In this document: one piece after another, positions 14,624-35,444 of the stretch
Position numbering within the stretch: the stretch's first letter is position 1
Layout of the letters: each line of letters starts with the position of its first letter
NCBI GenBank assembly: GCA_030592165.1
Contig: JAUVKC010000001.1
Location: forward strand, 1-35,444
DNA length: 35,444 nucleotides
Direction: 5' to 3'
From: Candidatus Buchananbacteria bacterium
GTDB taxonomy: Bacteria; Patescibacteriota; Patescibacteriia; CAIXNZ01
Notes under the pieces: model-generated
The model's database searches: none
The model's input: the letters and a program-made list of their open reading frames with translations, nothing else
Told to the model about the DNA's origin: nothing
Program-made: the position numbers and the translations under genes

Positions 14624-14707
14624 TCCTTCTTCGCTCCTGTTAGTTTGAATTAAATATACTTGATGTATTATTTATCTGGTCGGAGCTACGAAGGACAAGG
14701 AGGAGAA

Positions 14708-15121: not shown

Positions 15122-15126
15122 TGACT

Positions 15127-15155: not shown

Positions 15156-15267
15156 GTGACTGTTATGTTTTACAACGATTTGTAATGAAATAATTACCTG
15201 ATACGTTATAATTATATTGCTAACTCTTGCAAAATTTATTGATGTATGTTATTATTAGATATTATTT

Positions 15268-20871: not shown

Positions 20872-23800
20872 ATGAATAAAGAAAAAATACAATTTAATCC
20901 TGAACAAAAAAAGGCGATTACTTATGGTAATGGTCCTGTTTTGATTATTGCTGGTGCTGGCACAGGTAAGACAATGGTTATTACTCAAAGAATTTCTCAT
21001 TTGATATTAGATAAAGATGTGAATACTGATGCGATTTTGGCTTTAACATTTACTGATAAAGCCGCAGAAGAAATGGAAGAAAGGGTGGATAAATTGTTGC
21101 CATATGGGTATGTGGATTTATGGATTTCTACTTTTCACTCGTTTTGTCAAAAAATTTTAGAACAGCATGCTCTTGATATTGGTTTGCCAAATGATTTTAG
21201 TTTGCTTAATCAGACCTCTAGCTGGCTTTTGGTCCGCAATAACCTGGATAAATTTAATTTGGATTATTATAAACCGCTTGGTAATCCAACCAAGTTTATT
21301 CATGCTTTACTTAAACATTTTTCGCGAGCTAAAGACGAAGAAATTTACCCTGACGATTATTTGGAATATGCTCAAAATTTAAAACAAAACAATGATACAT
21401 CAATGAGTGACGATTTGCTTGATGAGGAAGCCTTGAGAGTAACTGAAATTGCAGAGGCCTATCATGTTTATCAGAAATTATTAATTGATAATAATAGTTT
21501 AGATTTTGGTGATTTAATAAATTATACCTTAAAGCTACTACGCAAAAGACCAAAAATTTTAAAGAAATTGCAGGATCAGTTTGAATATGTTTTGTTAGAT
21601 GAATTTCAAGACACAAATATTGCTCAATATGAATTAGTTAAATTATTAGCAGGGGAGAAGAAAAATTTAACTGTTGTCGGTGACGACGATCAGTGTCTTC
21701 CTGGTAATAGTTTAATAAGTGTTCCAAACGGAAAGAAAAAAATTAAGGATTTTAAGGTTGGAGACGAAATCTTAACTGGAATTGGTAGAAGCCAGATAGG
21801 GATAAGCAGTGTAAGCAATGTTATTAAAAATAAAAAGAAAGTCAGGTATCTTGATATAAAAACAAAATCAGGTAAAAAAATTAGAGTTACTGATAATCAT
21901 AAAATGTTTGTTCATGTTTCAGATTGTAAAATTGAAAGATTTTATGTGTATTTGATGCATAGACAGGGGATAGGTTATCGGATTGGGATTACAAGAAGTT
22001 TAAAAACAAGGTTGCGACTGGAAAGATCCAGTGATAGTATTTTGGCGATTGCTAGTTTTGAAACTGAAAAAGAAGCCAGGTATTATGAAACATTTTTATC
22101 ATTAAAATATGGTATGCCAACTTCATGTTTTCAGCAAAGAAAAGGTTTAGTAATTGACAATGAGTACTTATCTAAGTTGTATTCAGAATTAGATGTTGAT
22201 AATGCTGTTCGAAAATTAAGTGAGGATCTTAATAAAGACTTAAGGTTTAATCATTTTAATTTATCGAGTGTTTTTCGTGGTAATAAGTCAAGAGTTAATG
22301 TGAATTTAGAAATATGTTCAAGAAGATATAAGATTAAGAAATTAACGAAATATTCAAAAAATTACGCAGTTTCTCATTTGTTGAGTTTAGAAACTTCAGA
22401 CTTAAAGATTGTTAATAAATTAAAAACCAGTGGGTATGAACTTAAAAAATCAAAAAAAGGCTGGCGATTTCGACTACAGTCTGCTGATTTAAATAAATTA
22501 ATAGAATTATCTGAAAAATTACAGCTTATAACTAATGGTATAAGGCAAGAAAAATTTAAGATAGGGACTTTAAATAAACAAAGTTTAGAAGCTATTGTCA
22601 TGCCAGCTAAAAACCTTGTTGCGGGGCTTTTTGTTCCTGTAGAAAAGGGTAATAAAATTTATTATGATGAAATAGTTGAATTAAAAGAATTGAAAATGAT
22701 TGATACGGTTTATGATTTGGAAGTTAAAAAAACTCATAATTTTATAGCCGATGAAGTGGTCGTTCATAATTCAATCTATAAATTTAGGGGAGCCTCTGTC
22801 TCAAATATTTTGCAGTTTAAAAAAGATTTTCCAGAAAGTCAGGAAATAGTTTTAACTCAAAATTATCGTTCAAAACAAGGTATTTTAGATGTATCATATA
22901 ATTTTATTCAGTTAAATAACCCTAATCGTTTAGAATATCAATTAAATAACAGTAAAAAGTCAAAAAGTATAAAGTTAGAAAGTAAAATTGATAAAAGATT
23001 AAAATCAAATAATAAAGGTAAGGCGATTGTTGAACATATTCATGAAAAAACATTAGATGAAGAGGTTAAGGCTATTTTGCACAAAATAGTTGAACTTAAG
23101 AATAAAGATAAAAATGTTACTTGGGACGACTTTGCTATTTTGGTCAGAGCTAATGATTCTGCAAATTCGTTTATAAGCTATTTGCGTCAATCAAATATCC
23201 CTTATCAATTTTTGGCTTTACGAGGTCTTTATAATAAGCCAATTATTCTTGATATTTTAGCTTATTTTAAATTGCTTGATAATTATCATGAGTCAACTGC
23301 TGTTTTTAGGATTTTATCATCACCAATAGTTGAAATTAGTCAGCAAGATATTATTAAGATTAATCATTATGCTTATAAAAAAACTCAGTCTTTATACGAA
23401 GTTTTAAAAGAAGTCAGAGCGGTTAAGGGTGTAACTGCAAAATCAATTTCCGAGATCAATCGTTTGTTGGGTATGATTGAAAAACATACTCAGTTGATCA
23501 AAGAAAAAACAATAGGCGAAATTTTCAAAGCATTTTTAGAAGATACTGATTATTTAGAAAAATTAGTTAGACGTGATGAGTATGAATCAAACCAAGCTAT
23601 TTCGTATCTAAATCAGTTTTATAAAAAGATCAAAGAATTTGAAGAAGAACAAGCTGATCCAAAATTAAAATTATTTATGGAAAAAATGGATTTGGAGCTT
23701 GAAGCTGGTGAAGAGGGGAGTCTTTCTTTGGATCTTGACATTGGTCCGGAAATGATAAAAATTATGACTATTCATGCAGCTAAAGGTCTTGAATTTAAAT

Positions 23801-24945
23801 ACGTTTTTATTCCCAATATGGTTGATCGTAGATTTCCAACAGGGGAACGTAAAGACCCGATTGAATTGCCAGCAAAATTAATTAAAGAAATAATTCCAGA
23901 GGGTGATATTCATTTGGAAGAAGAAAGAAGACTTTTTTATGTTGCCATGACCAGAGCTAAAGACGGATTATTTTTAACTTCAGCTGCTGATTATGGCGGT
24001 GTGAGAAAAAAGAAATTATCAAGATTTTTGGAAGAATTAATGCAGACAAATAAAGAATTCAAATTAGACAAAAGAGCAGGTGTGGAAAATAAAGACTTAA
24101 TTGAAATCACGGCTGAGACTAAAGAAATTAAAAAGAAAGATAAGTATGAATTACCTTCAAGGTTTTCGTACTCACAATTGGCTGGGTTTTCCAAATGTCC
24201 TTATCAATACAAATTAAGTTATATCATGAGAGTACCTATTTTTGGTAAAGCAGTATTTTCTTACGGAAAAACTATGCATGCGACATTGGAAGAGTTTTTT
24301 AAATTAGTAGTTGGGAAACAGCAGAGCAAACAAACTGATTTGTTTACAAAAAATAGCAAAAAGACTGGTAAACAGAAAATAGGTAATTTAGTGAGCTTTG
24401 ATGAATTAATGGGATTGTTTGAATCTGTTTGGCTGGATGAATGGTATGAAGATAAAGAACAAAAAGAAAAATATTATACTCAGGCCAAGAAAACATTGAA
24501 AATATTTTATAGCCAAATCAAAGATCAGGTAAATCAAACTGAAGATACTGAGAAACCCTTTAATCTGAAAATTGATAATTATACATTGAGGGGTGTTATT
24601 GATAGGATTGATAGGACTGAAAAAGGAGAGCTTGTTATTGTTGATTATAAGACTGGTAAACCAAAAGAACAGGGTAAATTAGGTCCTGAAGATAAAATGC
24701 AACTTTTAATTTATCAAATAGCTGCGGAAGAAGTTTTGCAAGAAAAGGTTGATAAATTGATTTACTATTATTTAGATAATAATTCTAGCGTAGAATTTAT
24801 TGGTCAGGAAAAAGATAAAGAAAAGGTGAAAAATAATATTAGTAATTTAATTAAAAAAATTAACCAATCAGATTTTGTAGCTACTCCGAATCATTTTATT
24901 TGTAAATTTTGTGATTTTAGTAAAATTTGTGAATTTAAGGTATAA
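20872..24945 (+). CDS. UvrD/PcrA/AddA-like SF1 DNA helicase fused to a C-terminal 4-Cys PD-(D/E)xK nuclease; interrupted by an intein
   Basis: Walker A 'AGAGTGKT', motif II 'LLDEFQDTN', and motif III split as 'VVGDDDQ'|intein|'SIYKFRGA'. Also 'QNYRS' and 'TIHAAKGLEF'. The nuclease carries 'VIDRIDR...IVDYKTGK', 'QLLIYQ' and cysteines 'SKCPYQY ... CKFCDFSKIC'. Confidence 0.9.
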   Translation: MNKEKIQFNPEQKKAITYGNGPVLIIAGAGTGKTMVITQRISHLILDKDVNTDAILALTFTDKAAEEMEERVDKLLPYGYVDLWISTFHSFCQKILEQHALDIGLPNDFSLLNQTSSWLLVRNNLDKFNLDYYKPLGNPTKFIHALLKHFSRAKDEEIYPDDYLEYAQNLKQNNDTSMSDDLLDEEALRVTEIAEAYHVYQKLLIDNNSLDFGDLINYTLKLLRKRPKILKKLQDQFEYVLLDEFQDTNIAQYELVKLLAGEKKNLTVVGDDDQCLPGNSLISVPNGKKKIKDFKVGDEILTGIGRSQIGISSVSNVIKNKKKVRYLDIKTKSGKKIRVTDNHKMFVHVSDCKIERFYVYLMHRQGIGYRIGITRSLKTRLRLERSSDSILAIASFETEKEARYYETFLSLKYGMPTSCFQQRKGLVIDNEYLSKLYSELDVDNAVRKLSEDLNKDLRFNHFNLSSVFRGNKSRVNVNLEICSRRYKIKKLTKYSKNYAVSHLLSLETSDLKIVNKLKTSGYELKKSKKGWRFRLQSADLNKLIELSEKLQLITNGIRQEKFKIGTLNKQSLEAIVMPAKNLVAGLFVPVEKGNKIYYDEIVELKELKMIDTVYDLEVKKTHNFIADEVVVHNSIYKFRGASVSNILQFKKDFPESQEIVLTQNYRSKQGILDVSYNFIQLNNPNRLEYQLNNSKKSKSIKLESKIDKRLKSNNKGKAIVEHIHEKTLDEEVKAILHKIVELKNKDKNVTWDDFAILVRANDSANSFISYLRQSNIPYQFLALRGLYNKPIILDILAYFKLLDNYHESTAVFRILSSPIVEISQQDIIKINHYAYKKTQSLYEVLKEVRAVKGVTAKSISEINRLLGMIEKHTQLIKEKTIGEIFKAFLEDTDYLEKLVRRDEYESNQAISYLNQFYKKIKEFEEEQADPKLKLFMEKMDLELEAGEEGSLSLDLDIGPEMIKIMTIHAAKGLEFKYVFIPNMVDRRFPTGERKDPIELPAKLIKEIIPEGDIHLEEERRLFYVAMTRAKDGLFLTSAADYGGVRKKKLSRFLEELMQTNKEFKLDKRAGVENKDLIEITAETKEIKKKDKYELPSRFSYSQLAGFSKCPYQYKLSYIMRVPIFGKAVFSYGKTMHATLEEFFKLVVGKQQSKQTDLFTKNSKKTGKQKIGNLVSFDELMGLFESVWLDEWYEDKEQKEKYYTQAKKTLKIFYSQIKDQVNQTEDTEKPFNLKIDNYTLRGVIDRIDRTEKGELVIVDYKTGKPKEQGKLGPEDKMQLLIYQIAAEEVLQEKVDKLIYYYLDNNSSVEFIGQEKDKEKVKNNISNLIKKINQSDFVATPNHFICKFCDFSKICEFKV
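21694..22770 (+). mobile_element. Intein (359 aa) in helicase motif III with a non-canonical, GIY-YIG-like endonuclease insert
   Basis: Starts with Cys1 ('CLPGNSLISV', block A). Block B is 'RVTDNHKMF', block F 'VYDLEVKKTHNFIA', and block G 'VVVHN' followed by +1 Ser. Removing it restores the canonical 'GDDDQSIYKFRGA'. Confidence 0.85.
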
Positions 24946-24975
24946 TTAAATAGTAATAATTAATCATTGAATAAA

Positions 24976-27540
24976 ATGAAACGAAAAAAAATATTAATAT
25001 TTTTTACATTTTTTAGTTTTATTGTGATTTGCATTATTTTCCAAAAAATTTCATTGGCAGCTACATTTGTTGAATCATTTATTGGCAACGACTACATTGA
25101 TAGTGCGAATACAACAGCAGATTGGGAAACTTCTACTACAACTGCCCATTTAATAAATGGTGAATGGCGACAATTAGATGGAGCTACTTCGCCTTATGTT
25201 TTTAAAGAAGAAGCTGTAACTGGGTTTACTGCTCCTAAACCAGATATTATTCATGATGCTAATAATCAGCCGTTAATTGTTTTTGATCAGACAATAGATA
25301 CAACAATGTCAGCTACAAAATGGAGTGTCGGTGCTGGTACGAGTGTCTGTGGTGCTGGTGTTACAGATTGCTGGACTGATTTATCTGGGACGACAAAAGG
25401 ATTGCATAATTCTGTTTTTAATTTGCCTGGGGGCGATTATGTTAATAGAAAAAGAATTGGCAGATTAAAAAATGGATATCCAGCCGTTATTTTTTCATAT
25501 TATAGTGTGGCAGGATCATATTATGAATTGCATTATATGCAATGGACACCAAATGCTGCGGATGGAGTGTGTAGCTCTGGTAATTCTTGCTGGACAAATG
25601 CTGCCAAAACAGCAGAAGGGTCAGAAAAAATTTCCAATAATAACATGACCGCACTTTCTAATTTTTACAAATCTTTTGATTTAGTTATGGATCAATATGA
25701 ACAACCAAATATCGTATGGAATGAGTATGATGGAACTAATCTATCATACCATTATACAAGATGGAATGGTTCAAATTGGACAAACGCTAATAGAACTACT
25801 ACAGGTAAACAACAACTAACTACAAAGGTAAGTAGTGATAATGCTGATTTAGAATTTATAATCAAAAATGGGGTTATTTATGTTGTTTTAAGATATGATG
25901 ATTATAATTATGTAGGTAAATGGAATGGTAGTAATTGGGTTAATTTGGCTGACACAACTTTTACTAATTATAGTGGTATGACAATTTTTAAAGCAGCTAA
26001 TAATTTAAACATTGGTATAGGTCAAAATAGAAAACGAAATTATTTAATGGTTGAGAATAATCAACTTTATCTAGGAATTAGTTCCTACACTACTGGCACG
26101 GCTGATAATTATTTAGCTTACTGGGATAATACTGTTGATACTTGGAAATATATCAATGGAACAACAATTGGCAATAATCAAACAGCTATTGATAATATGA
26201 ACGAATTATTTAATGGGGAGTCTTGGGATCTTCACGAATTGTACATGGTTAATCTGTCAGTTGATAAAAAAACAAATAATATTTTAATGTTGATGTCTAA
26301 TTATGATGGGGCAAGCTCGGAATTATATTTTTCACAATGGGATGGTAGTAATTGGAAACAACCAGATGGTGACACAGATGGCTATGAAGTTGCTAGTAAC
26401 TTAGTTTACGGTGGTAATTATAATACTTATTCATCAATAGCAATAGATAATTATGGTAAACCTATTTTTAGTTATGTTGATAGAGCTTATACCTCTCCCA
26501 ATAAAAATTTACCATTATATATAAGTAAATTTAATGGTAGCGATATAACTGGTGTTAATGATTATACTGCAAACAGAGATTTGATTGCTGATGATAACCA
26601 AAATTTAAGTACTGGACTATATTACCAGAGTTTATATTTCAATCAAGCTACTGAAGAAATATATTTTGCAGGTATGACTGGTGATGGTGGAATGCTTATT
26701 ACAAAATTTTTTGCAAATAAATACCCAGATCAGGACCAGGATGTTGTGTCTGATACTATTGCAGTTCCATATAATTCAGCTTCAGAGATAACATCTGCAA
26801 CATTAGTAGCAGAACATATTAAACCATCAGGCACAGATATAACATATTATTTAAGTGCAGATGGTGGTTCAAATTGGGAAAGCGTTACTAGTGGTGTAGC
26901 TCATAATTTTACTAATACTGGCGATGATTTGCGTTGGAAAGCTAATTTTACCTCAAGTAGCGAGGATAGTACTCCCACCATACAATATTTATATATAGAT
27001 GTTGATGGAAAAACAAAAGGGACTTCAGGAGATATTATTATAACAGCAGAAATAATACCATCATTAAGCTTGAATATTAATTCCACTACTTGTGATTTCG
27101 GAGTTTTTTCTGATACAAATATTAAAACATGCAGTTATGTAGTTACAGTTTCAACAAATGCAAGTGCTGGTTATATGGGATATATTCAAGAAGATCAGGA
27201 CTTACAAACTATAAATTCTAAAATAATTACAGATGTTGATGATAGTGCTGTAACTGGTGGTGGCACAGGTATTGATGAAGAATATGGCCTTTCAACAAGT
27301 GATTCATCTCAGGAAATTTCTGAAAATAATACAGGCTTAACTTGTGCACAATTAAATAATCAATCGTCTACAGCAATGCCAGCAACACCTTTAACAACTG
27401 ACAATCAAACCTTTGTAACCTCAACTTTACCAGTCGCTAGTGAAGAAACTACTTTGTGTCATTCCGCAGCAATTATTAGCAACACTCCAGCAGGTTCATA
27501 TTCTCATTCGGTTACAATTACAGTCGTTGGTAATTTTTAA
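24976..27540 (+). CDS. Large secreted surface protein: W-rich propeller-like repeats and a C-terminal WxL-like 4-Cys module (CscC-like)
   Basis: Signal peptide; I prefer the ATG at 24976 over the TTG at 24967. Repeated '[RKQ]W[ND]GSNW' and 'CWT[DN]' motifs. The last ~170 aa are paralogous to the C-terminus of the 32791-33798 product; both end in 'TPAGSY..[ST]VT[IV]TVVGNF'. Confidence 0.8.
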   Translation: MKRKKILIFFTFFSFIVICIIFQKISLAATFVESFIGNDYIDSANTTADWETSTTTAHLINGEWRQLDGATSPYVFKEEAVTGFTAPKPDIIHDANNQPLIVFDQTIDTTMSATKWSVGAGTSVCGAGVTDCWTDLSGTTKGLHNSVFNLPGGDYVNRKRIGRLKNGYPAVIFSYYSVAGSYYELHYMQWTPNAADGVCSSGNSCWTNAAKTAEGSEKISNNNMTALSNFYKSFDLVMDQYEQPNIVWNEYDGTNLSYHYTRWNGSNWTNANRTTTGKQQLTTKVSSDNADLEFIIKNGVIYVVLRYDDYNYVGKWNGSNWVNLADTTFTNYSGMTIFKAANNLNIGIGQNRKRNYLMVENNQLYLGISSYTTGTADNYLAYWDNTVDTWKYINGTTIGNNQTAIDNMNELFNGESWDLHELYMVNLSVDKKTNNILMLMSNYDGASSELYFSQWDGSNWKQPDGDTDGYEVASNLVYGGNYNTYSSIAIDNYGKPIFSYVDRAYTSPNKNLPLYISKFNGSDITGVNDYTANRDLIADDNQNLSTGLYYQSLYFNQATEEIYFAGMTGDGGMLITKFFANKYPDQDQDVVSDTIAVPYNSASEITSATLVAEHIKPSGTDITYYLSADGGSNWESVTSGVAHNFTNTGDDLRWKANFTSSSEDSTPTIQYLYIDVDGKTKGTSGDIIITAEIIPSLSLNINSTTCDFGVFSDTNIKTCSYVVTVSTNASAGYMGYIQEDQDLQTINSKIITDVDDSAVTGGGTGIDEEYGLSTSDSSQEISENNTGLTCAQLNNQSSTAMPATPLTTDNQTFVTSTLPVASEETTLCHSAAIISNTPAGSYSHSVTITVVGNF

Positions 27541-27578
27541 ATTTAGATAAAAATAAAATTTACGATATAATATACAAA

Positions 27579-28886
27579 ATGAAGAGAAAAATAAAATTAG
27601 CAATAAGAATTTTTATTTTTTTGATGATTATTAGTTTTTTATTGCCAAAAATTATTAGCGCGGCAAGTTTAACCGTTATGAGCGATAGGATGACACGGCA
27701 TGCACCTTTGACAGTTTCAGATCATGAAATAAAGTTTACTACTCCCAGTGGCGTAGGTGATTCTGGCCAATATATAAGAATATTGTTTGATTCTGGTTTT
27801 GATTTATCAAATATTGATTATACAGATATTGATTTAATGCATGGAGCTATCACAGGAGTTGAGTCTGATGAAACTTTAGATTCAATCGCAGATATTACTT
27901 CATGGGGAGTAAATATTGGTGTGAATAATATTGATTTTTCTCATCCAACAAATAATTTGAATGGTGATATATTACCTGGTGATAAAATTGTTATAAGAAT
28001 AGGCTTTAGTGCAAACGGAGGTGACCAGCAAATAATAAATCCCGCGATAATAGGTTCAAAAATAATTACCTTAACTGGAAATTATGGTGACTCTGGGAAG
28101 TTAGCAGTGGCTATTTTTCAAGATCAAGTCGGGGTTGGTGGTGAAACATCAGGGCTGGCTCCTGTGGCAGTAGTTTTAGATCCACCTTTTAATATCTTGA
28201 CCAATCAAATGGACTTAAGCTGGTCGCAAAATTTAAATAGTGATTTTGCTAATTATCAGGTTTATTACTCAACATCTCCTGGCTTAACTGATTTAACAGG
28301 AACATTGTTTTCTACAATCACTAATCAAACAACTCTTTCTTTGACTGTGACGGGATTAAATCCAAATACAATATATTATTATAAAGTTTATGTTTTTGAT
28401 ACTGAAGGTTTGAAAGTACCTTCAAATGAGGTCAGTGCGAAAACAAATTCTTCAGGATCTGGTTTGCCTCCCCAGCCACCTGTACCAACAGTTAGTAATG
28501 TAACTTGCCCGGTTTTTAAAACACCTGAATTTATTGAGGGTACTAGATCTCCTGGAACCTCAGTTTTTGTAAATTATTCAAATTCAAATGTCACTTATCC
28601 TGGTGTAAGTTCTTGGGAAGCCTTAGTTAATTTTGTTATGGGTAGTAATGTTGTAAATGTTTTTGTTCAAGATGGCTTAGGTCAGACAAGTAATACTTTG
28701 TCAGTAAATATTTTCCGTTGGGAAATAGGGGATACAAATGGCAGTGATATAATTGATGATTTTGACTTGGCTGGGATTGCTTGGCATTGGCAAGGTGATT
28801 GGTGCCAAGGAGATTTTAATAAAGATGATTTTATTGATGATTTTGATCTAGCTGGTTTAGCTGCTCATTGGGATAATGTTTATTGA
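27579..28886 (+). CDS. Secreted protein with an FN3 domain and a C-terminal dockerin-like module
   Basis: Signal peptide 'IISA-AS'. FN3-like 'LSWSQNLNSDFANYQVYYSTSPG...YYYKVYVFD'. Duplicated calcium-loop segments 'GDTNGSDIIDDFDLAGIAWHW' and 'GDFNKDDFIDDFDLAGLAAHW' (28728-28883). Confidence 0.8.
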   Translation: MKRKIKLAIRIFIFLMIISFLLPKIISAASLTVMSDRMTRHAPLTVSDHEIKFTTPSGVGDSGQYIRILFDSGFDLSNIDYTDIDLMHGAITGVESDETLDSIADITSWGVNIGVNNIDFSHPTNNLNGDILPGDKIVIRIGFSANGGDQQIINPAIIGSKIITLTGNYGDSGKLAVAIFQDQVGVGGETSGLAPVAVVLDPPFNILTNQMDLSWSQNLNSDFANYQVYYSTSPGLTDLTGTLFSTITNQTTLSLTVTGLNPNTIYYYKVYVFDTEGLKVPSNEVSAKTNSSGSGLPPQPPVPTVSNVTCPVFKTPEFIEGTRSPGTSVFVNYSNSNVTYPGVSSWEALVNFVMGSNVVNVFVQDGLGQTSNTLSVNIFRWEIGDTNGSDIIDDFDLAGIAWHWQGDWCQGDFNKDDFIDDFDLAGLAAHWDNVY

Positions 28887-28888
28887 TG

Positions 28889-29037
28889 AGAATTTAGAAT
28901 TAAGAGTTTAAGAATTAAGAGTTTTAGAATATAGAATATAGAATTTAGATTTAAGTGTTTAAGAATTTAGAATTTAGAATATAGATTTAAGTGTTTAAGA
29001 ATATAGAATTTAGAATTAAGAATAAATAATTGTAGAA
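28889..29037. repeat. Degenerate tandem array of ~20 heptamer/octamer units T-W-W-A-G-A-R, with higher-order 15-nt and 36-nt repeats
   Basis: It fills the whole intergenic gap. GAATTAAGAGTTT occurs twice (28897, 28912). The 21-mer TAGATTTAAGTGTTTAAGAAT occurs exactly twice (28946, 28982), within 36-nt units that are 34/36 identical. Confidence 0.85.
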
Positions 29038-29041
29038 TAAA

Positions 29042-31843
29042 ATGCGAAGATTAGCAAAAATTAGTTTGGGTATAATTATAAGCTTTTGGATTTTTTCCAT
29101 GATGGCTAGTCTTAACCCTGCTTTAGCTGCAGGTAATGCTATTATGATTTTAACATCAGTAAGAACTGATTATTATGTTGGTGAAACAATTTACATTGAT
29201 ATAGAGGTTCAGACAAATGGAGAAAGTATTAATACAGTTCGTGCTCTAATGGATTTTACCGGCGGAGATGTTTTGCTGATTGATGATTTTGATTTGGGTA
29301 CTGCTTGGCCAAATTTAAGTCCTGGACAAAGTCTTGATAATATTTTGGATACTATAAATGTTGGAGGGTTTATCTTTGTTGATTCTGTCACCCAGGATTC
29401 TTTATTCGGAACTTTAGTTTTTACTGCTAATCAAGTTGGTTCTTCAACTATTAATTTTGCTTCAGGATCTCATTTGATTTCGCCTGATATTGTTGAAAGA
29501 TTAAATTTAGCTGGGTCACAGGGGATTACAATTAATGTTGCTGAACCAGTCATCCCAAATGTACCACCAACTGTTTTGAGTTCCAATATTGAGGTTACAA
29601 TTAATCAAGAAGGTACAACAACTGTAACTGCTTTTGATTCTGATGGTGATAATGTGACAATTACTTGGGATGCAATTAATAATTCATATTTTAGTAACCC
29701 TGTATCAGGTCAGGCTGCATCTGTAGATTTCACTTGGACACCAACTGAAATTGGTGATTTTAGTTTTCCTTTCTATGCTACTGACGACGGTCCTGATTCA
29801 TTAATTACCCAAGGTTTTGTTAATGTTAGTGTAGTAGATGAAGTTATTGTTATTGAAGAAAATTTTGCTCCTATATTTCAGCCAGAATCAAATAAATCAG
29901 TTGAAATAGGGCAAGAAATTAGTTTTCAAGTTTTAGTAACAGACCCTGATGGTGATAATGTGAATTTAACCTGGGATGTCCCAGCAGAAGCAATTATTTC
30001 CAATATAAACAATAATACAACTACGGTAACCGTAAATTTTCGTTGGATTCCAAATGAACAAGGGTCGTTTCCCGTAAATTTTTATGCTACAGATGATAAT
30101 CCTGATAATCCTAAAAATTCAATTTTAACAATAATTATAAATGTTTCTATTCCTGATCCGCTAGAAAATCAGTCACCAGTTTTTATACCTGTTGCTAATC
30201 AATTGATTGATTTGGGCGAAACCATCACCTTTAATGTCCAGGCAACAGATCCTGATGGTGATAATGTTGATTTATCCTGGAATTTACCTTCAGGATCAAG
30301 TTTTACGAATGTTACTAGTGGAATTAGTGCCAATGGTACTTTTAGCTGGTTACCGTCTCAAGAAGGCGTTTATACCTTAATTTTTAGTGCAACTGATGAT
30401 AATATTGATAATCCATTAACAACTGATTTAGTGGTTAGCTTAGGAGTTTCTGTGCCTCCCTTGGAACCTAATGATCCACCTGAATTTGCTAATATTACAG
30501 AAAAAACAATTAATGCAAACGAAGTAATAACATTTGAAGTGTCAGCTACAGATCCTGATGGTGATAATGTTAGTTTAACAATGGAGAGTTTCCCGGGAGC
30601 AAATTTTTCTGTTTTAACTGAGGGCAATACATCGGTCAGTAATTTTAGTTGGAAGCCACAAAATTTTGGTATTTATTATGTAGTTTTCAATGCCACAGAT
30701 GATCGTGCTGATAATAACCTAACTAAGAGTAGAAGTGTTAGAATTACTGTTTTTGGCGGTGAATGTCCTCCTTGTGGAGGTGGTGCTTGCGTAGAATTAG
30801 TTTTAACATGTGATGAGGTTGCTGAAATACCAATAACTGAAGTTATTCCAGATAAAACCTTACCAATAATTACCTCACCATCGCATCCACATGAGGCTTT
30901 TTGGTATGCTAATGCTAAGCCGCAATTTGTTTGGGATATTGATGATGTTGGTATTCTTGGTTATAATTTTAATCTCGATGAGATCCCATATCATGAACCA
31001 ACAAAAGTTTATTCATATAGTCAGAGTAAATTTTTTGCATTTTCTGAAGTAAATGATGGGTTTTGGTATTTTCATTTAAAAACAAGATATGAAGATGGTT
31101 GGGGACCAACAGCTCACTATCAAGTAAAGATTGACACAACACCACCAGATTTTTTCAGACCATCACTTGAAGAAAATGAATTGTATTTTTCAGCTGTAGA
31201 TAAACATTCAGGTGTGGCTTATTATGATATAAAAATTGATCAAGGCTATTGGCAAAGAGCAACTAGTCCGTTGAATTTGAATGAATTTCATGGACAAGGA
31301 GATCGTCTGATTTTAAGAGCAGTTGACAATGTAGGTAATGCAATCGAAAGCAATGTAGATTTAATTAAAAATGAAGTTTTAGAAGAAGAGGTACAAAAAA
31401 TATATATTTTAGAAGATTTTAGCAGAATAATTGAGCCACCATTTATTGAAAAAATTAGTTATAAACAAATACGAGATAAATTATTTAAGCACGATTATTT
31501 AATTGTTTCTGGTATTTCAGAGCCAAATGCCCAAGTTACTATATATTTATCAACTGAACCTGAGTCAATATTTTCTACTAAAGCAGATAAAAGCGGTATT
31601 TGGGAAGCAAAATATGAAATAGAACTAAAAAACCAAGAATATAGCATATATTCAATTGCTACAATTAATAATATTAATTCTTTACCTTCAGAAAAGATAT
31701 ATTTCACTTTCCAAAAAATTAAAGGCATCTCATGGTATTATTACTGGTTTATCATTTTAATTTGGTTAATAATTTTGTTGCTTTTATGGAAATTAAAAGT
31801 ATATATTCATGAATATTTGAAAAAAAAATTCGATAATAATTAA
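29042..31843 (+). CDS. Membrane-anchored scaffold-like surface protein: cohesin-like N-terminal domain, 4 He_PIG/cadherin-like repeats, Cys knot, C-terminal TM anchor
   Basis: Signal peptide. Cohesin-like beta-sandwich at ~29130-29540 ('VGETIYIDIEVQTNGESINTVRALMDF...LFGTLVFTANQVGSSTINF'). Four ~100-aa repeats each carry '[AV]TDPDGDNV.L.W' and 'F.W.P...G.....F.ATDD'. Also 'GGECPPCGGGAC' and a C-terminal TM 'WYYYWFIILIWLIILLLLW' followed by a basic tail. Confidence 0.8.
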   Translation: MRRLAKISLGIIISFWIFSMMASLNPALAAGNAIMILTSVRTDYYVGETIYIDIEVQTNGESINTVRALMDFTGGDVLLIDDFDLGTAWPNLSPGQSLDNILDTINVGGFIFVDSVTQDSLFGTLVFTANQVGSSTINFASGSHLISPDIVERLNLAGSQGITINVAEPVIPNVPPTVLSSNIEVTINQEGTTTVTAFDSDGDNVTITWDAINNSYFSNPVSGQAASVDFTWTPTEIGDFSFPFYATDDGPDSLITQGFVNVSVVDEVIVIEENFAPIFQPESNKSVEIGQEISFQVLVTDPDGDNVNLTWDVPAEAIISNINNNTTTVTVNFRWIPNEQGSFPVNFYATDDNPDNPKNSILTIIINVSIPDPLENQSPVFIPVANQLIDLGETITFNVQATDPDGDNVDLSWNLPSGSSFTNVTSGISANGTFSWLPSQEGVYTLIFSATDDNIDNPLTTDLVVSLGVSVPPLEPNDPPEFANITEKTINANEVITFEVSATDPDGDNVSLTMESFPGANFSVLTEGNTSVSNFSWKPQNFGIYYVVFNATDDRADNNLTKSRSVRITVFGGECPPCGGGACVELVLTCDEVAEIPITEVIPDKTLPIITSPSHPHEAFWYANAKPQFVWDIDDVGILGYNFNLDEIPYHEPTKVYSYSQSKFFAFSEVNDGFWYFHLKTRYEDGWGPTAHYQVKIDTTPPDFFRPSLEENELYFSAVDKHSGVAYYDIKIDQGYWQRATSPLNLNEFHGQGDRLILRAVDNVGNAIESNVDLIKNEVLEEEVQKIYILEDFSRIIEPPFIEKISYKQIRDKLFKHDYLIVSGISEPNAQVTIYLSTEPESIFSTKADKSGIWEAKYEIELKNQEYSIYSIATINNINSLPSEKIYFTFQKIKGISWYYYWFIILIWLIILLLLWKLKVYIHEYLKKKFDNN
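29555..30790 (+). repeat. Four in-frame tandem ~300-nt (100-aa) Ig/cadherin-like repeats inside the scaffold gene
   Basis: The DNA word 'gatcctgatggtgataatgt', or a near-identical variant, recurs at ~29640, 29943, 30249 and 30552. Confidence 0.75.
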
Positions 31844-31847
31844 TATT

Positions 31848-32573
31848 ATGATAAGAAGTTATAAAAAATATTTTAGCAAAATAGTAATATTTATTGCAAT
31901 ATTGATTATTTTGGTTTTAGTTCAACAGGTTAACGCAACTATGTCCAGCAATAATTATAATATTTGGATTGATACTTTTAGTGGTGGAGGAGGGGACTTG
32001 TCATCGTCGAATTATCAAATTGATTCAAGTATTTCCTTTGAACAGGGTGCAACATCTGCCAGTGCAAATTTTTCTGAAATAGCAGCATTTAGCGCTATTG
32101 ATGATGAGCCTACTGTTGGTTTTAGTATTCAGTCAGTAACCCTTAATTTTGGTGAATTATCTCCAAGTGGGACTGCTTATGATACTCATACGTTTTCAGC
32201 TTATACAAACGCTCAGGAAGGCTATACAATCAAAGTCTATGGAGATCCCTTGAATAATGTTAACCATACATTAGCAGGAATAGGTTCAACATCAGCTCAA
32301 TCACAGTCTGGCGCAGAGCAATTTGGCATTAATTTAGTGGCTAATACAGTCCCCATATCTGGAGCTAATCCGTCAGGAGGTATTGGTCAATCATCTGCAA
32401 ATTATGATACAAGTAATTATTTTGCTTATGCCTCTGGTGATATTATTGCTCAGGCTGCTAGCTATTCATATCAAACAGATTTTACAACAACAGTTATTGT
32501 AAATATTTCTGAAGAAACTCCTGCTGGTGCATATACTACAGTTTTAACTTATGAATTTATACCGGTTTTTTAA
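31848..32573 (+). CDS. Secreted small WxL-like-module protein (CscB-like, divergent, no Cys)
   Basis: Signal peptide 'VQQVNA-T' and duplicated 'SSNNY.I'/'SSSNYQI' motifs. The C-terminal module 'LNFGELS...TNAQEGYTIKVYGD...AEQFGINL...TPAGAYTTVLTYEFIPVF' aligns with the modules at 27030-27540 and 33283-33798. Confidence 0.7.
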   Translation: MIRSYKKYFSKIVIFIAILIILVLVQQVNATMSSNNYNIWIDTFSGGGGDLSSSNYQIDSSISFEQGATSASANFSEIAAFSAIDDEPTVGFSIQSVTLNFGELSPSGTAYDTHTFSAYTNAQEGYTIKVYGDPLNNVNHTLAGIGSTSAQSQSGAEQFGINLVANTVPISGANPSGGIGQSSANYDTSNYFAYASGDIIAQAASYSYQTDFTTTVIVNISEETPAGAYTTVLTYEFIPVF

Positions 32574-32732
32574 TTTATTGAAAGTTGTCCACATAGCAGA
32601 TGGAGAAAAATTTATCATTTTCTGCTATACTTATGTCATGATAACTCTTACTTATTTAAGATGTGGAAAACTTTTTAGATTACAAAATATAATGAAAATA
32701 AAAAGTAATAAATATTAATAATTTACATATAG

Positions 32733-32760
32733 CCAAATTAAAAATTTGGTTGTTTATAAT
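32733..32760 (+). promoter_or_regulatory. Perfect palindrome CCAAATT-AAA-AATTTGG next to a consensus TATAAT
   Basis: The palindrome is at 32733-32749 and TATAAT at 32755-32760, 31 nt upstream of the ATG of the putative major subunit gene. No good -35 is present, so the palindrome sits where an activator or repressor would bind. Confidence 0.35.
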
Positions 32761-32790
32761 GTTTTAAAATTAATAAATAACTAATAATTT

Positions 32791-33798
32791 ATGAAAAGTA
32801 GATTTAAGTTAATTTCTTTTTTGGGGATATTTTTGATCCTAGCAATGATTGTTTCATTAGTATCACCAATATTAAATGTTGCTGAGGCGGCTCAAATGAC
32901 AAGTGTTACTTGGGTTTCAAATGATTACATCACAGCTTCTACAACTGCTACCTGGACAATTACTTTCACAGCAACTACTTTGACTGATGGAGATAGAATT
33001 GTTTTAACATTTGCCGAAGAAGATAGTTCAGCTGTTACTACCACTGCAGGAAATATTTCTGCTCAGGGTGATATTGCTTTTACTACAGTTGGAACAATAA
33101 CAACCTCAGGTGGAGTAGTTACTATTCCAATTACTACTGTAGGAGCTGCAGTAGCACCTTATGTAGTAACTATAACAGGGAACACAAACAGAGCTAGTGC
33201 TGGATCTCAAGCGTTATCTTTAGTAACAGATGATGGTTCAACAGACATTGATACAGGGGCAGCTGCTATGTATGCAATAGGTGATAATACAGTGGATATT
33301 ACAGGAACAGTTGATCCAACATTGAGTTTGGTATTAAGTGCTACTTCATGTGATTTAGGTGTTTTAACTTCATCTACAATTGAAACTTGTAGTTATAGTA
33401 CGACTGTAACAACAAACGCTACAAGTGGTTATACTGGTTATTTACAATCAGATGCCGGTTTAGTAAGTGGTTCAAATGAAATAAACGCTGTGGCTGATGC
33501 TGCGGTAACTGCTGCTGCGGAAGAATATGGTGTGGGAACTGATACTACTGATACTGTTGGTGCTACCTTTATTGATTACGCAGCTACTGATACATGTGCA
33601 AACTTAGATGCTGGTACTACAGCGGTTCCAACTGGCGGTCTTAATAATTCAGCTCAGTCATATGTTACTGCCTCTGCTCCTGTAGATGGAAGTTCAACCG
33701 GAGTAACTACCCTATGTCATGCAGCTGCTATTACTGGAACAACTCCAGCCGGTTCATACACTCAAACAGTGACAGTCACTGTAGTGGGTAATTTCTAA
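32791..33798 (+). CDS. Putative major surface/fibre subunit: T/A/G/V-rich secreted protein with C-terminal WxL-like 4-Cys module (CscB-like)
   Basis: Signal peptide 'NVAEA-AQ'. The mature part is almost free of Lys/Arg and rich in T, A, G, V and S. The C-terminal module has Cys at 'TSCDLG', 'ETCSY', 'DTCANL' and 'TLCHAAA', ending in 'TPAGSYTQTVTVTVVGNF'. A 217-nt upstream region gives it its own promoter. Confidence 0.8.
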   Translation: MKSRFKLISFLGIFLILAMIVSLVSPILNVAEAAQMTSVTWVSNDYITASTTATWTITFTATTLTDGDRIVLTFAEEDSSAVTTTAGNISAQGDIAFTTVGTITTSGGVVTIPITTVGAAVAPYVVTITGNTNRASAGSQALSLVTDDGSTDIDTGAAAMYAIGDNTVDITGTVDPTLSLVLSATSCDLGVLTSSTIETCSYSTTVTTNATSGYTGYLQSDAGLVSGSNEINAVADAAVTAAAEEYGVGTDTTDTVGATFIDYAATDTCANLDAGTTAVPTGGLNNSAQSYVTASAPVDGSSTGVTTLCHAAAITGTTPAGSYTQTVTVTVVGNF

Positions 33799-33839
33799 AA
33801 TAAATTATTAAATAATTAAAAATTAAAAAAGGGGAAAAT

Positions 33840-34829
33840 ATGAAAACAAAAATATTTGGATTTATGGTAGCTATCCTACTTGGTGTACTATTACTGCCAT
33901 TAGCAGGTAATGCTATCACAGTATCACCACCGATAATTGAGATTGAAGCTGTTCGGGGTGATGTTATTAGTCAAATTTTAAAAGTTAGAAACGAAAATAC
34001 TTCAGCTGTAACTTATTATCTTAGTGCTGAAAGATTTATCGCTGGTGGTGAAGAAGGACAGCCTCAGTTTATTGGAGAAGATATCGGGCTTTCAACTTGG
34101 CTGAATTTCCCAGTTGATAGTGTGACAATTCCTGGTGGTGAAACAGTAGAAATACCATTTACAATTGCTATCCCAAATTTTGCTGGTCCTGGAGGACATT
34201 ATGCTGCTATTTTTTTAAGCACCTTACCTCCTGATAGTGTTGCAGGCGGATCACAGGTTTCTATAGCTCAAAAGATTGGAACATTAGTATTAGTAAGAAT
34301 TGCTGGTGATATTAAAGAAGGATCATCAGTTGCTGAATTTGAAGCAGTAGCTGATACATTTGATTCTTTACCAGTTGATTTTAATCTTAGAATTGAAAAC
34401 ACAGGTAATGTTCATGTGAAACCAATGGGTACAATTTTATTAAAGAATATGTTTGGTTCTGTTGCTGGTCAGGTTGCAGTTAATGAAACAGGTGGTAATG
34501 TTTTACCAGACCAAATTCGTAAATTTACACCTTCATGGGTAAAAAATCCAAATGCTGTTGGTGCTTCTAGTTTTTGGGGTAAATATAGAGAACAAAGGGA
34601 AAATTATGCTTTTGGTAAATATAATGCAGATTTAACATTAGCTTATGGTACTGCAGGAAAAGTTTTAACTGGTGATGCCAGTTTTTGGGTGATTCCTTGG
34701 AACATTATTATAGTTAATCTGATTATCTTAGTAATCCTAGTTGTAATTCTTTATTATCTAGTTAAGAAATATAATGCTTGGTTATTGACTAAGTATGGAA
34801 AGAAAAGCCCAAAATCAGCAAAAAAATAG
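33840..34829 (+). CDS. CscA-like (DUF916 + DUF3324-like) two-Ig-domain protein with signal peptide and C-terminal TM anchor
   Basis: SD 'AAAGGGGAAAAT-ATG'. 'AITVSPPIIEIEAVRGDVISQILKVRNENTSAVTYYLS', 'TIPGGETVEIPFTIAIP...GGHYAAIFL' and a second domain 'FNLRIENTGNVHVKPMGTILLKN...VLPDQIRKF...GKYNADLTL'. TM 'IIIVNLIILVILVVILYYLV' is followed by a K-rich tail. Confidence 0.7.
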   Translation: MKTKIFGFMVAILLGVLLLPLAGNAITVSPPIIEIEAVRGDVISQILKVRNENTSAVTYYLSAERFIAGGEEGQPQFIGEDIGLSTWLNFPVDSVTIPGGETVEIPFTIAIPNFAGPGGHYAAIFLSTLPPDSVAGGSQVSIAQKIGTLVLVRIAGDIKEGSSVAEFEAVADTFDSLPVDFNLRIENTGNVHVKPMGTILLKNMFGSVAGQVAVNETGGNVLPDQIRKFTPSWVKNPNAVGASSFWGKYREQRENYAFGKYNADLTLAYGTAGKVLTGDASFWVIPWNIIIVNLIILVILVVILYYLVKKYNAWLLTKYGKKSPKSAKK

Positions 34830-34868
34830 GATTTAATTGATTTAGATTTAGAATATATCTTAAAATAG

Positions 34869-34907
34869 TAAGAAGGGCTTCATTAAATGGGTCCTTCTTA
34901 TTATTTA
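34869..34907 (+). terminator. Stem-loop/terminator candidate after the CscA-like gene
   Basis: TAAGAAGGGC (34869-34878) pairs with GGTCCTTCTTA (34890-34900); 10 bp including one G-U pair. A T-rich 'TTATTT' follows. The loop is long (12 nt), so confidence is moderate. Confidence 0.45.
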
Positions 34908-34912
34908 AATGT

Positions 34913-35311
34913 ATGAAGAAATATTATTTTGTCATAGTTATTATATGTTTAGTCTTTACTGCTAATTTTATTTTTTTGTCGGTTGGCTTTGGTCAGCCTG
35001 GTGTTAATATTGGCGGGTATGTGCCTTTAACATCAGAAAATCATGAGTCTACTTTAAATTCTATAAATGATTCTTCTGTAAATATTCAACAAGTAAAATT
35101 TAAAGAAAATAAGTATTTGTATTATTTTGAAAAAGCTTCAGAAGAAAAATCTAAAAAAGTTTTGGTTCAGACTGATTATGATAAATTTTCAAGTTATGGG
35201 TTAATGGTTTTAGTCTTAATTATTTTTGCTATAATATTATTACTATTGCTTCATTTTAATGAGAAATTTTGGCGTAATACTAAGATTAAATCAAGTGATT
35301 TAAAAATATGA
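34913..35311 (+). CDS. Small bitopic protein (N-terminal signal/TM and C-terminal TM anchor with basic tail)
   Basis: 132 aa with hydrophobic segments at both ends ('YFVIVIICLVFTANFIFLSV' and 'LMVLVLIIFAIILLLLL'). It occupies the position of the small anchored CscD-type protein but has no LPxTG. Confidence 0.55.
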   Translation: MKKYYFVIVIICLVFTANFIFLSVGFGQPGVNIGGYVPLTSENHESTLNSINDSSVNIQQVKFKENKYLYYFEKASEEKSKKVLVQTDYDKFSSYGLMVLVLIIFAIILLLLLHFNEKFWRNTKIKSSDLKI

Positions 35312-35444
35312 AAAATAAAATATTGATTAATGCTTCTATTTTAGTTTTGGTATTTATTTTATCGTATTTTATTTTGCATATTGTTAACGCTGGTCTTGTT
35401 AGTAATTTTTCAGATGAAATAGATTCACATTTAATTTCATCGGC
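35308..35444 (+). CDS. 5' part of a further secreted/membrane protein, truncated by the window end
   Basis: The ATG at 35308 overlaps the preceding TGA (ATGA). The translation is MKNKILINASILVLVFILSYFILHIVNAGLVSNFSDEIDSHLISS..., a signal peptide followed by 'NFSDE'. Confidence 0.5.
   Translation, partial: MKNKILINASILVLVFILSYFILHIVNAGLVSNFSDEIDSHLISS

Follow-up and report, generated by a model that had tools for sequence, protein, structure and literature searches.

The contig JAUVKC010000001.1 of a Candidatus Buchananbacteria bacterium was analyzed over its entire length of 35,444 nucleotides (nt), called the window here, and the genes for secreted proteins that run from position 24967 to its end were studied as one locus. 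With a probability of roughly 0.8, this locus is a divergent Pam-type pilus operon of a Candidate Phyla Radiation (CPR)/Patescibacteria bacterium related to Falkowbacteria, Buchananbacteria and Uhrbacteria. The basis of this reading is provided by domain homologies, the fold of the chaperone, synteny and the co-occurrence of genes. The locus is regarded as a divergent branch and not as an orthologous copy, because the C-terminal domains (CTDs, or C-domains) of its 857- and 335-amino-acid (aa) proteins and the whole 241-aa protein scored under the respective NCBIfam cutoffs.

Pam pili are known from two cryo-electron microscopy (cryo-EM) filament structures of the CPR parasite Ca. Mycosynbacter amalyticus, which belongs to the Saccharimonadia (bioRxiv 10.64898/2026.03.03.709456). 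The pilins PamA, PamB and PamE consist of a beta-sandwich N-terminal domain (NTD) and a truncated-Ig CTD joined by a linker that serves as donor strand, whereas PamT is a single domain without a linker and is located at the tip (bioRxiv 10.64898/2026.03.03.709456; NF058579). PamC and PamD are PapD/FimC-like chaperones with a C-terminal transmembrane (TM) helix, and PamR is an RbmA-like anchor/terminator in which an N-terminal strand precedes two FnIII domains and a TM helix at the C-terminus; the system has no usher and has conserved ATP synthase neighbors (bioRxiv 10.64898/2026.03.03.709456). The pili, described from one cultivated Saccharimonadia parasite, are thought to make the first contact with the host (bioRxiv 10.64898/2026.03.03.709456).

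Genes of the Locus

Seven co-directional genes for secreted proteins were found on the + strand by open reading frame (ORF) analysis, followed by the first 137 nt of an eighth:

24967..27540, + strand: large pilus subunit and candidate adhesin, 857 aa (ORF, C-domain comparison)
27579..28886, + strand: donor-only subunit, proposed chain terminator, 435 aa (hhalign, Pfam)
29042..31843, + strand: membrane-anchored scaffold with a cohesin-like domain, 933 aa (Pfam, NCBIfam, hhalign, TM helix)
31848..32573, + strand: PamT-like single-domain subunit, proposed tip and first strand acceptor, 241 aa (NCBIfam)
32574..32790: AT-rich intergenic region of 217 nt, 5' of the major pilin gene, possible internal promoter (sequence only)
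32791..33798, + strand: candidate major pilin, 335 aa (NF058581, AlphaFold2 model, composition)
33840..34829, + strand: membrane-anchored two-domain chaperone of the PamC/D type, WxLIP/CscA homolog, 329 aa (AlphaFold2, Foldseek, hidden Markov models)
34913..35311, + strand: small anchored protein, proposed minimal anchor/terminator, 132 aa (ortholog alignment, motif)
35308..35444, + strand: eighth gene, start only, ended by the contig edge (N-terminal translation MKNKILINASILVLVFILSYFILHIVNAGLVSNFSDEIDSHLISS)

The gaps between the seven genes measured 38, 155, 4, 217, 41 and 83 nt. An earlier note, which a model had made from the letters of this DNA alone, had listed the same seven ORFs, and their coordinates, common direction and gaps of 4-217 nt were all found on the + strand; for the 857-aa ORF an alternative start exists (TTG at 24967), the note having taken the ATG at 24976. 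Signal peptides had been assigned to all products, and N-terminal signal-type hydrophobic segments were indeed present in all seven (judged by eye in the 933-aa protein). The 933-, 329- and 132-aa proteins also carry a C-terminal TM helix and a basic tail. The note had interpreted the locus as a self-contained surface-fibre system, which was borne out. It had also taken the system to be undescribed, and this part did not stand: the module shared by the subunits is the Pam pilin C-domain (NF058581), the 241-aa protein is PamT-like (NF058579) and the system is the subject of a 2026 preprint.

Proposed Pilus Subunits

The C-terminal module that had been proposed to be common to three of the proteins was recovered in all of them. 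The C-domains of the 857- and 335-aa proteins were 41% identical over 173 aa by BLAST (E=8e-27). BLAST placed that of the 241-aa protein much further away (E=0.004 over 41 aa), and its homology to the other two was detected at the profile level (hhalign 95.1%, E=3e-8). A CTD hidden Markov model (HMM) built here matched the 857-aa C-domain at 8e-57 and a bona fide Saccharimonadales Pam pilin at 9e-15.

In the 335-aa protein, the signal peptide is followed by an NTD with a beta-sandwich (aa 31-158). The donor linker, VDITGTVDP, lies at aa about 165-176 (nt 33283-33318), and aa 175-335 (nt 33313-33795) form a C-domain of the Pam type in which two Cys pairs are conserved. The score of the 335-aa protein against NF058581 (1.9e-7, 31.3 bits) was under the cutoff of 55, and this model was matched by 26 of the 29 members of its family, the best at 3.8e-13. 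The most conserved parts of the family were the linker segment NQVxISGTVDP and the CTD. In the AlphaFold2 (AF2) model, with a predicted local distance difference test (pLDDT) score of 81.8, the CTD exceeded 90 and the linker was unstructured, at about 63. The composition of the protein, noted before as poor in K/R and rich in T/A/G, was confirmed (K/R 0.7%; T/A/G/S 54.8%), and its interpretation as an abundant structural subunit is retained in the form of a candidate major structural subunit. The Foldseek search with the whole two-domain model was uninformative, returning only generic two-Ig adhesins (TM-score 0.2-0.28), and the pilin profile had no match among PDB sequences.

The 857-aa protein starts with a signal peptide and an N-terminal region of ~650 aa with W-x-G-x-x-W repeats. 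At aa 690-698 (nt 27034-27060) the strand IIITAEIIP resembles a donor linker, and aa 698-857 (nt 27058-27537) are a pilin C-domain of the Pam type, which reached 25.4 bits against NF058581 (cutoff 55). No family match in Pfam and no sequence match in the PDB was obtained for the N-terminal region.

The 241-aa protein matched NF058579 (PamT) over its full length (6-241 of 241) at 9.4e-48 and 162.7 bits, with an equivalog cutoff of 240, and NF058581 at 134 bits, over the cutoff of 55. By sequence it is PamT-like, not an equivalog by NCBI's threshold. No linker motif was present ahead of its CTD. It was 39% identical to a Saccharimonadales protein (P0259) that scores 312 bits on PamT (cutoff 240) and is encoded next to a Pam pilin of 175 bits and a chaperone. 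The latter was matched by the HMM of the window chaperone family at 8e-107, and therefore the two chaperone families are regarded as the same.

The Chaperone and Its Relation to WxLIP/CscA

The 329-aa protein was modeled by AF2 as two beta-sandwich domains followed by a C-terminal TM helix (pLDDT 91.6). The helix spans aa 287-319 (nt 34698-34796) and precedes a Lys-rich tail; a low-confidence hairpin loop (aa ~128-144) is followed by the strand GTLVLVRIAG, which is conserved and has hydrophobic residues in alternation. In the PDB, the structures ranked first by Foldseek were the Enterococcus faecium WxLIP structures 9i1y (6e-11) and 9i25, which is WxL-bound (1.6e-10), and then the chaperones CsuC, CfaA, Caf1M, DraB and FimC (1e-9 to 5e-7, target-normalised TM-scores 0.5-0.57).

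In the Csc/WxL clusters of Lactobacillales, Enterococcus and Listeria, CscA is the WxLIP, CscB and CscC are small and large WxL proteins, and CscD is a small LPXTG protein (PMC1534035, PMC10599100). Genuine WxL clusters for comparison were taken from Firmicute plasmids. The window copy of the 329-aa protein had no Pfam match, and no direct match to PF11797 (DUF3324) was found; PF06030 (DUF916, now WxLIP_PGBD) was matched by 31 of the 59 chaperone-family members, the best at 3.3e-10. The family profile searched against PDB sequences had EfmWxLIP1 as its top two matches (E about 0.004). By hhalign, seven WxLIPs aligned with the CPR chaperone family at 98.3% (E=1.7e-14) over 231 columns across both domains. 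When the CPR chaperone HMM was run with HMMER on 145 Firmicute ORFs, all eight WxLIPs were the top eight (8.9e-12 to 2.5e-3); in the reverse search, with the WxLIP HMM on 770 CPR ORFs, chaperones were 11 of the 12 top matches. The homology of the 329-aa chaperone family to Firmicute WxLIP/CscA (DUF916+DUF3324+TM) is supported by these results, and the CscA-like character first assigned to 33840-34829 is upheld by Foldseek, PF06030, the PDB profile search, hhalign and reciprocal HMMER alike. At 50% identity, the family comprised 20,379 clusters at E<=1e-3 and 4,261 clusters at E<=1e-30.

RbmA was also returned by Foldseek for the 329-aa protein (1.2e-9). Two beta-sandwiches with a TM helix are a combination shared with PamR, and the protein might be a PamR/RbmA-like terminal anchor and not a chaperone, with subunits that self-assemble like archaeal threads or cannulae. 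This was judged highly improbable. The target-normalised TM-scores were 0.44-0.57 for chaperone-usher chaperones and WxLIP versus 0.31-0.33 for RbmA, and WxLIP was solved with a WxL subunit (9i25) whose sandwich it is predicted to complete. Moreover, the gene universally adjoins pilins and is the most conserved component of the system, and the disordered hairpin, with the strand of alternating hydrophobic residues behind it, resembles G1 donor strands. The PamR-like assignment prompted by the RbmA matches was rejected on the TM-scores and on the similarity to WxLIP and chaperone-usher chaperones.

Comparison of the C-Domain With WxL Domains

A plain Pfam scan of the window proteins detected no WxL, DUF916, DUF3324, Cohesin or Dockerin match at E<=1, and family-level and isolated-module scans were needed. 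PF13731 (WxL) was matched by none of the window proteins and none of 29 pilin homologs, nor was it listed in the precomputed Pfam fields of 120 PamT-like homologs, and W-x-L motifs were absent from the window subunits. Fourteen WxL domains compared with the CTD and PamT families gave 0.2-0.6% by hhalign, like the negative controls; the range for WxL versus CTD with the full sets was 0.2-1.8%. With one CTD subfamily, values of 30% (E=5.5e-4, local) and 45% (E=3.6e-5, global) were obtained over 137-151 colinear columns, with controls at <=0.2%. This alignment pairs the motifs that had been placed side by side in the earlier note (aGW.l with GY..., and YsttLtWtL with Ys.tvT.t). After the addition of six more WxL sequences the WxL-versus-CTD value dropped to 5-11%. 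An unfiltered WxL HMM run on the CPR pilins gave no significant match (E=0.005-0.4), and in one case the alignment lies on the NTD. Since the hhalign signal shifts with the alignment from 0.2 to 45%, WxL homology of the C-domain is not claimed, and the description of the shared module as WxL-like is not established. The mechanistic resemblance appears to hold either way, as an incomplete sandwich that would be completed by a strand of a two-domain protein.

These data also bear on a different reading of the locus, as a non-filamentous complex of the Csc/WxL type with an adhesive role, in which a CscA/WxLIP-like protein would hold one large and two small WxL-like proteins. The chaperone is a WxLIP homolog, the layout parallels that of Firmicute loci, with a small and then a large subunit, a protein of the DUF916 type and a small anchored one, and the weak colinear WxL-CTD signal reached E-values down to 3.6e-5. 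However, the subunit domain is the Pam pilin C-domain, whose relatives polymerize according to cryo-EM, a conserved donor linker lies ahead of the CTD, relatives carry multiple shaft-type pilin paralogs and none of the 29+120 family members matched Pfam WxL. Such a complex is thus considered very unlikely. If strand complementation is used by WxL clusters as well, the Pam and Csc/WxL readings may coincide.

A Cohesin-Dockerin Pair as Putative Terminator and Anchor

The 435-aa protein contains a pilin-type NTD with a donor linker, AVAIFQDQVGVGG, at aa 27-190 (nt 27657-28148), and this region aligned with the pilin family at 98.2% (hhalign, E=3.7e-14). It is followed by an FN3 domain (aa 206-286, nt 28194-28436; Pfam fn3 8.4e-10), a ~95-aa domain without assignment and a C-terminal dockerin (aa 381-435, nt 28719-28883). 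The two EF-hand-like repeats of the dockerin, GDTNGSDIIDDFDLAG and GDFNKDDFIDDFDLAG, have D/N/S at loop positions 1, 3, 5, 9 and 12, which is the spacing of EF-hand ligands. Against Dockerin_1 (PF00404, gathering threshold 22.9) the window copy scored 16.8 bits, its ortholog in the related locus L002 25.9 bits and the Kerfeldbacteria equivalent (L029) 36 bits. Neither a pilin C-domain (family HMM) nor a TM helix (TM scan) was found in the 435-aa protein. It is proposed as the chain terminator because it could donate a strand and accept none.

The 933-aa protein encoded next to it has a signal peptide, and its aa 29-170 (nt 29126-29551) are a cohesin-like domain. Further on come Ig repeats at about aa 176-571 (Pfam PKD 7.5e-19, Big_9 7e-13), a conserved OmpL47-type domain (NCBIfam OmpL47-type barrel, 9e-8), a TM helix (aa 904-922, nt 31751-31807) and a basic tail. 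The cohesin-like domain had no direct match in Pfam Cohesin and no sequence match in the PDB, and was aligned with CPR cohesin domains at 95.6% by hhalign (E=1.2e-8, 134 of 145 columns; controls <1%). Two of those CPR domains exceed the gathering threshold of Pfam Cohesin (PF00963), with 26 and 34 bits.

The co-occurrence of these genes was surveyed in the 770 ORFs of the fetched CPR loci, which were searched with a cohesin HMM and scanned for TM helices. Donor-only proteins with a dockerin-type end and no TM helix were directly followed by a gene for a cohesin protein with a TM helix in 10 of 10 loci. By contrast, no cohesin gene was found in the three loci (L028, L030 and L032) whose donor-only protein has its own TM helix; in L030 and L032 these are single-chain donors with FN3 repeats. 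No single protein of the PamR type (N-terminal strand, two FnIII, TM) was present in the window. The function of PamR appears to be split between the 435-aa protein (NTD, linker, FN3, dockerin) and the 933-aa protein (cohesin, TM), and the main support for reading this pair as a split PamR-like terminator-anchor is the complementary pattern of dockerin-end and TM-end donors. The cohesin and dockerin genes pointed out by the earlier note are supported by comparison with relatives and are syntenic; they do not represent an insertion into a csc locus, as had been thought, and appear to provide the terminator and the anchor of the pilus.

A 689-aa protein encoded at 16502-18571 has an internal Dockerin_1 domain (26.8 bits, over the cutoff; aa 295-346) and is a second possible client of the 933-aa cohesin scaffold.

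With this second dockerin protein, other cohesin clients are possible, and the cohesin and dockerin genes could be a separate module for surface display, of the FN3 protein or of the 689-aa dockerin protein, merely co-located with the pilus genes. Cohesin/dockerin pairs are widespread outside pili, and binding between the 435- and 933-aa proteins is a prediction. This alternative is nevertheless rated as unlikely: the dockerin protein has a bona fide pilin NTD and donor linker, both genes lie within the operon in at least eight genomes, and the pattern of 10/10 versus 3/3 loci is complementary.

The Small 132-aa Protein

After its signal peptide, the 132-aa protein carries a conserved stretch resembling a donor strand (GVNIGGYVP at aa 30-38, nt about 35000-35026) and a second conserved stretch, ENKYxYFFEK. 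It ends in a TM helix at aa 97-115 (nt 35201-35257) with a basic tail and has no LPXTG. In the ortholog alignment, the mature N-terminus of the family reads GQxxVN[IV]xG[YI]VP, with the same pattern as the pilin linker (phi-x-phi-x-G-x-phi-(x)-P). The motif occurs once each, at the expected position, in the 857-, 335- and 132-aa proteins, where shuffles predict 0.08, 0.09 and 0.007 occurrences, respectively. The gene follows that of the chaperone in 10 loci. From the pattern of this motif, we infer a role as donor strand plus anchor.

A similar strand was found directly after the signal peptide in three of six Firmicute CscD proteins (SIRFTGTYVP, SIQFSGYYEP and TSFFGVYEEP), and CscD may donate a strand to the WxL domain, tethering the WxL protein to the cell wall. 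In the Firmicute plasmid WxL clusters L008, L035 and L039, the CscD motifs read GSIRFTGTYVP, GSIQFSGYYEP and GVTSFFGVYEEP. The view that the 132-aa protein is the counterpart of CscD, with a TM helix in place of LPXTG, is plausible. It had also been described as doubly anchored, and here the evidence points elsewhere: since its N-terminal hydrophobic stretch resembles a cleavable signal peptide, it is probably singly anchored.

Conservation of the Operon in Related Genomes

Related loci were collected with an alignment of 15 closer sequences, and the family HMMs were then mapped on all of the loci. The conserved order was large CTD protein, 435-type donor, 933-type anchor, PamT-like protein, pilin, chaperone and small anchor, followed by a pilin with a 435-like NTD, a pilin and further large CTD proteins. 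It was kept in at least eight species-level CPR genomes, namely the window (to its end) and the loci L001, L002, L004, L016, L021, L022 and L023; adjacency by chance, which the earlier note had named as a refuting outcome, is thereby contradicted. The relatives bear the labels Falkowbacteria, Uhrbacteria, Buchananbacteria, Kerfeldbacteria or 'Parcubacteria', and minimal versions (PamT, pilin and chaperone) were found in Saccharimonadales. A UvrD-type helicase was always located upstream of the operon where the flank was available.

In the relatives the operon runs about 4-5 genes past the point where the window ends, giving a conserved order of 12-13 genes. The eighth gene of the window, which overlaps the stop codon of the 132-aa gene by 4 nt, has an N-terminus (MKNKILINASILVLVFILSYFILHIVNAGLVSNFSDEIDSHLISS) that matches L001 11478-12512 and L004 12019-13077, and both of these are pilin paralogs (435-like NTD plus CTD) that come after the small-anchor gene. 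Downstream of the pilin paralogs, L004 (14402-20450) encodes Kelch beta-propeller proteins of 967-1000 aa that end in the Pam C-domain. LamG_3 proteins of ~1150 aa, in which no C-domain was detected, are encoded in L001 (15773-19249) and L002 (15912-19376), and the L001 copy gave a weak match to a Bdellovibrio 'mosaic adhesive trimer' N-domain (36.8 bits). These large Kelch and LamG_3 proteins of the relatives look like swappable adhesin cargo, and their place in the operon is past the end of the window.

Some peculiarities were observed in single relatives. In L004, and in this relative only, a gene for a 123-aa 23S rRNA intervening-sequence protein (PF05635; 11200-11571) lies between those of the chaperone and the small anchor and breaks the order that is conserved elsewhere. 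In L034, the chaperone gene is followed by one for a 1390-aa protein (11679-15851) with PT-HINT/Vint (Hint-type autoprocessing) and DUF4215 domains, which suggests a different kind of cargo or terminator. Two metagenome-assembled genomes that are GTDB representatives and carry the operon, L017 (the same as L001) and L026, are titled 'uncultured Gammaproteobacteria bacterium'; the title is almost certainly a mislabel, because of their gene content and closest relatives.

Proposed Assembly of the Pilus

According to the mechanism proposed, all of the products would be exported by Sec, and the subunits would have the Pam pilin C-domain, an incomplete Ig-like domain, at their C-termini. By inserting a strand, the membrane-anchored 329-aa chaperone would keep the domain open (donor-strand complementation), and the strand would then be replaced by that of the next subunit's linker, located between its NTD and CTD and with the pattern phi-x-phi-x-G/A-x-phi-x-P (donor-strand exchange). 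Such an exchange is expected by homology to the PamA/PamB filaments seen by cryo-EM. No usher would take part, because the cell lacks an outer membrane; none of the seven products matched usher families in the Pfam and NCBIfam scans. The PamT-like 241-aa protein would start the fibre at its distal tip, a position assigned because its acceptor domain is present and the linker absent. The shaft would be built from the 335-aa pilin and from paralogs encoded past the contig end. Adhesive modules would be inserted by the 857-aa protein and, in relatives, by other large CTD proteins encoded downstream. Growth would end on the addition of the donor-only 435-aa protein, with its NTD and linker and without an acceptor domain. 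Its dockerin would bind the cohesin of the TM-anchored 933-aa scaffold, and the base of the fibre would thereby be tethered to the membrane. The 132-aa protein, with a donor-like strand and a TM helix, could act as a second, minimal anchor or terminator. In this scheme the order of the subunits, the binding of the dockerin by the cohesin and the function of the 132-aa protein are inferred.

Several observations weigh against the identification of the locus as a Pam-type pilus operon or against parts of the mechanism. The CTDs of the 857- and 335-aa proteins scored 25 and 31 bits against the NF058581 cutoff of 55, and the 241-aa protein was under the PamT equivalog cutoff. Likewise, the window dockerin was under the Pfam cutoff, the window cohesin had no direct Pfam match, and the pattern of 10/10 versus 3/3 loci spans perhaps 3 versus 2 independent lineages. 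The RbmA match of the 329-aa protein would be compatible with a PamR-like anchor role. The likeness to PamA-E/R/T of M. amalyticus rests on the published description, and the pilus of this lineage is predicted from its genes. Strand insertion, subunit order and cohesin-dockerin pairing are predicted as well.

Comparison With Known Systems

The locus shares with the Pam system the signal-peptide subunits of NTD-linker-CTD type, the PamT-like single domain, the TM-anchored two-domain chaperone, the lack of an usher, a nearby ATP synthase operon and a K/R-poor, abundant-type pilin with conserved Cys pairs. It differs in its origin from another CPR class (Falkowbacteria/Uhrbacteria-type), in its CTDs under the NCBIfam cutoffs and in the single chaperone of the window. 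In addition, the window has the donor-only NTD/FN3/dockerin protein and a separate cohesin+TM scaffold where the Pam system has PamR, and a 132-aa donor-strand+TM protein and a large CTD adhesin (857 aa) are added. The relatives add Kelch and other large CTD proteins, as well as the neighboring LamG protein without a detected CTD. Relative to the accessible part of the published Pam description, the new elements are the lineage, the putative anchor split between a cohesin and a dockerin protein, the small protein proposed as a donor-strand anchor and the homology of the Pam chaperone to WxLIP/CscA.

Similarities to the Csc/WxL clusters comprise the chaperone-like protein, homologous over both domains and with the same C-terminal TM helix and basic tail, a small single-domain subunit together with a large one that has N-terminal adhesive domains and the shared domain at its C-terminus, and a small anchored protein with a similar strand motif after the signal peptide. 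In both, the incomplete beta-sandwich is predicted to be completed by a strand of the two-domain protein. By contrast, the window subunits have no W-x-L motifs or Pfam WxL match, and no homology of theirs to WxL subunits is claimed. The window system would be anchored by TM helix and cohesin-dockerin, the WxL clusters by sortase/LPXTG and peptidoglycan binding, and the window has NTD-linker-CTD shaft pilins, whereas fibres are not known for WxL clusters.

Chaperone-usher pili are alike in the PapD-like chaperone fold (CsuC, CfaA, Caf1M, FimC; about 1e-9), the incomplete-Ig subunits, the logic of donor-strand complementation and exchange, the tip subunit without a donor strand and the terminator unable to accept one. 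They differ in that the window system has no outer-membrane usher, its chaperone is membrane-tethered and the organism is monoderm; moreover, its donor strand is an internal linker, not an N-terminal extension, and its pilins have two domains. The window system works like a chaperone-usher system without being a member of that group. Finally, the cellulosome (Clostridia scaffoldins) has in common with the locus a C-terminal duplicated dockerin of the Ca2+-binding F-hand type and an adjacent gene for a cohesin-like domain on a cell-anchored scaffold. In the window, however, the client is a pilus-type subunit and not an enzyme, the scaffold is TM-anchored and not attached by SLH or sortase, and the cohesin is so divergent that Pfam gives no direct match.

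Genomic Context

The contig has a GC content of ~30% and all of its genes are on one strand. An F1Fo ATP synthase operon is located at 4180-10889, ~14 kb upstream of the pilus genes, and its a, b, delta, alpha, gamma, beta and epsilon subunits were identified. It is directly followed by a Na+/H+ exchanger gene (10900-12381). A Wzy_C/O-antigen-ligase-like membrane protein is encoded at 18586-20553, just after the 689-aa dockerin protein.

The pilus genes are preceded by a gene for a UvrD/PcrA-type helicase-nuclease of 1357 aa (20872-24945), with UvrD N and C domains and PD-(D/E)XK. Its orthologs adjoining the pilus operon in L001 and L002 have 998 aa, the window copy being ~350 aa longer. The extra segment (aa ~272-633) is an intein (Pfam Intein_splicing 5.6e-19, Hint 8.5e-8) with visible C...HN-S boundaries.

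With regard to transcription, a promoter of its own had been attributed to the gene of the 335-aa protein. One sigma-70-like match (32664-32693) was found in the region 32574-32790. The promoter/terminator scan showed no enrichment over shuffles (53 promoter-like sites found versus 60 expected), and the proposal is left unsupported either way. Degenerate TAGAAT, TAAGAAT and TTTAGAAT repeats and several overlapping promoter-like matches were observed between the dockerin and cohesin genes (28887-29041).

Significance

With this operon, the Pam system extends to another CPR class, where it is richer in adhesin-bearing subunits, and a modular mode of anchoring is suggested, with cohesin-dockerin in place of a covalent TM anchor. 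On a broader and tentative reading, held at somewhat less than even odds, Pam pili and Firmicute Csc/WxL clusters would be two branches of an ancient usher-less chaperone/donor-strand system of single-membrane bacteria, here with a novel dockerin-into-cohesin pilus anchor. WxLIP/CscA may then be equivalent to a membrane-tethered PapD-like chaperone, the WxL domain may be the counterpart (possibly a homolog) of the Pam C-domain, and the 132-aa protein, with its TM helix, and the small proteins of the CscD type, with LPXTG, may both be donor-strand anchors. A link between WxL/WxLIP and chaperone-usher-type assembly was absent from the Pam preprint and from the indexed literature.

If true, a dockerin-ended terminator held in a membrane-bound cohesin would be a previously unreported anchoring of a strand-exchange pilus. 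The comparison joins two literatures that do not cite each other, that of Pam pili and that of WxL/WxLIP in Enterococcus virulence and Lactobacillus adhesion, and provides a mechanistic hypothesis for the WxL clusters, chaperone-type strand complementation. If the broader reading is correct, the WxL clusters of enterococci, listeriae and lactobacilli would assemble by strand complementation or exchange, and not by simple peptidoglycan binding.

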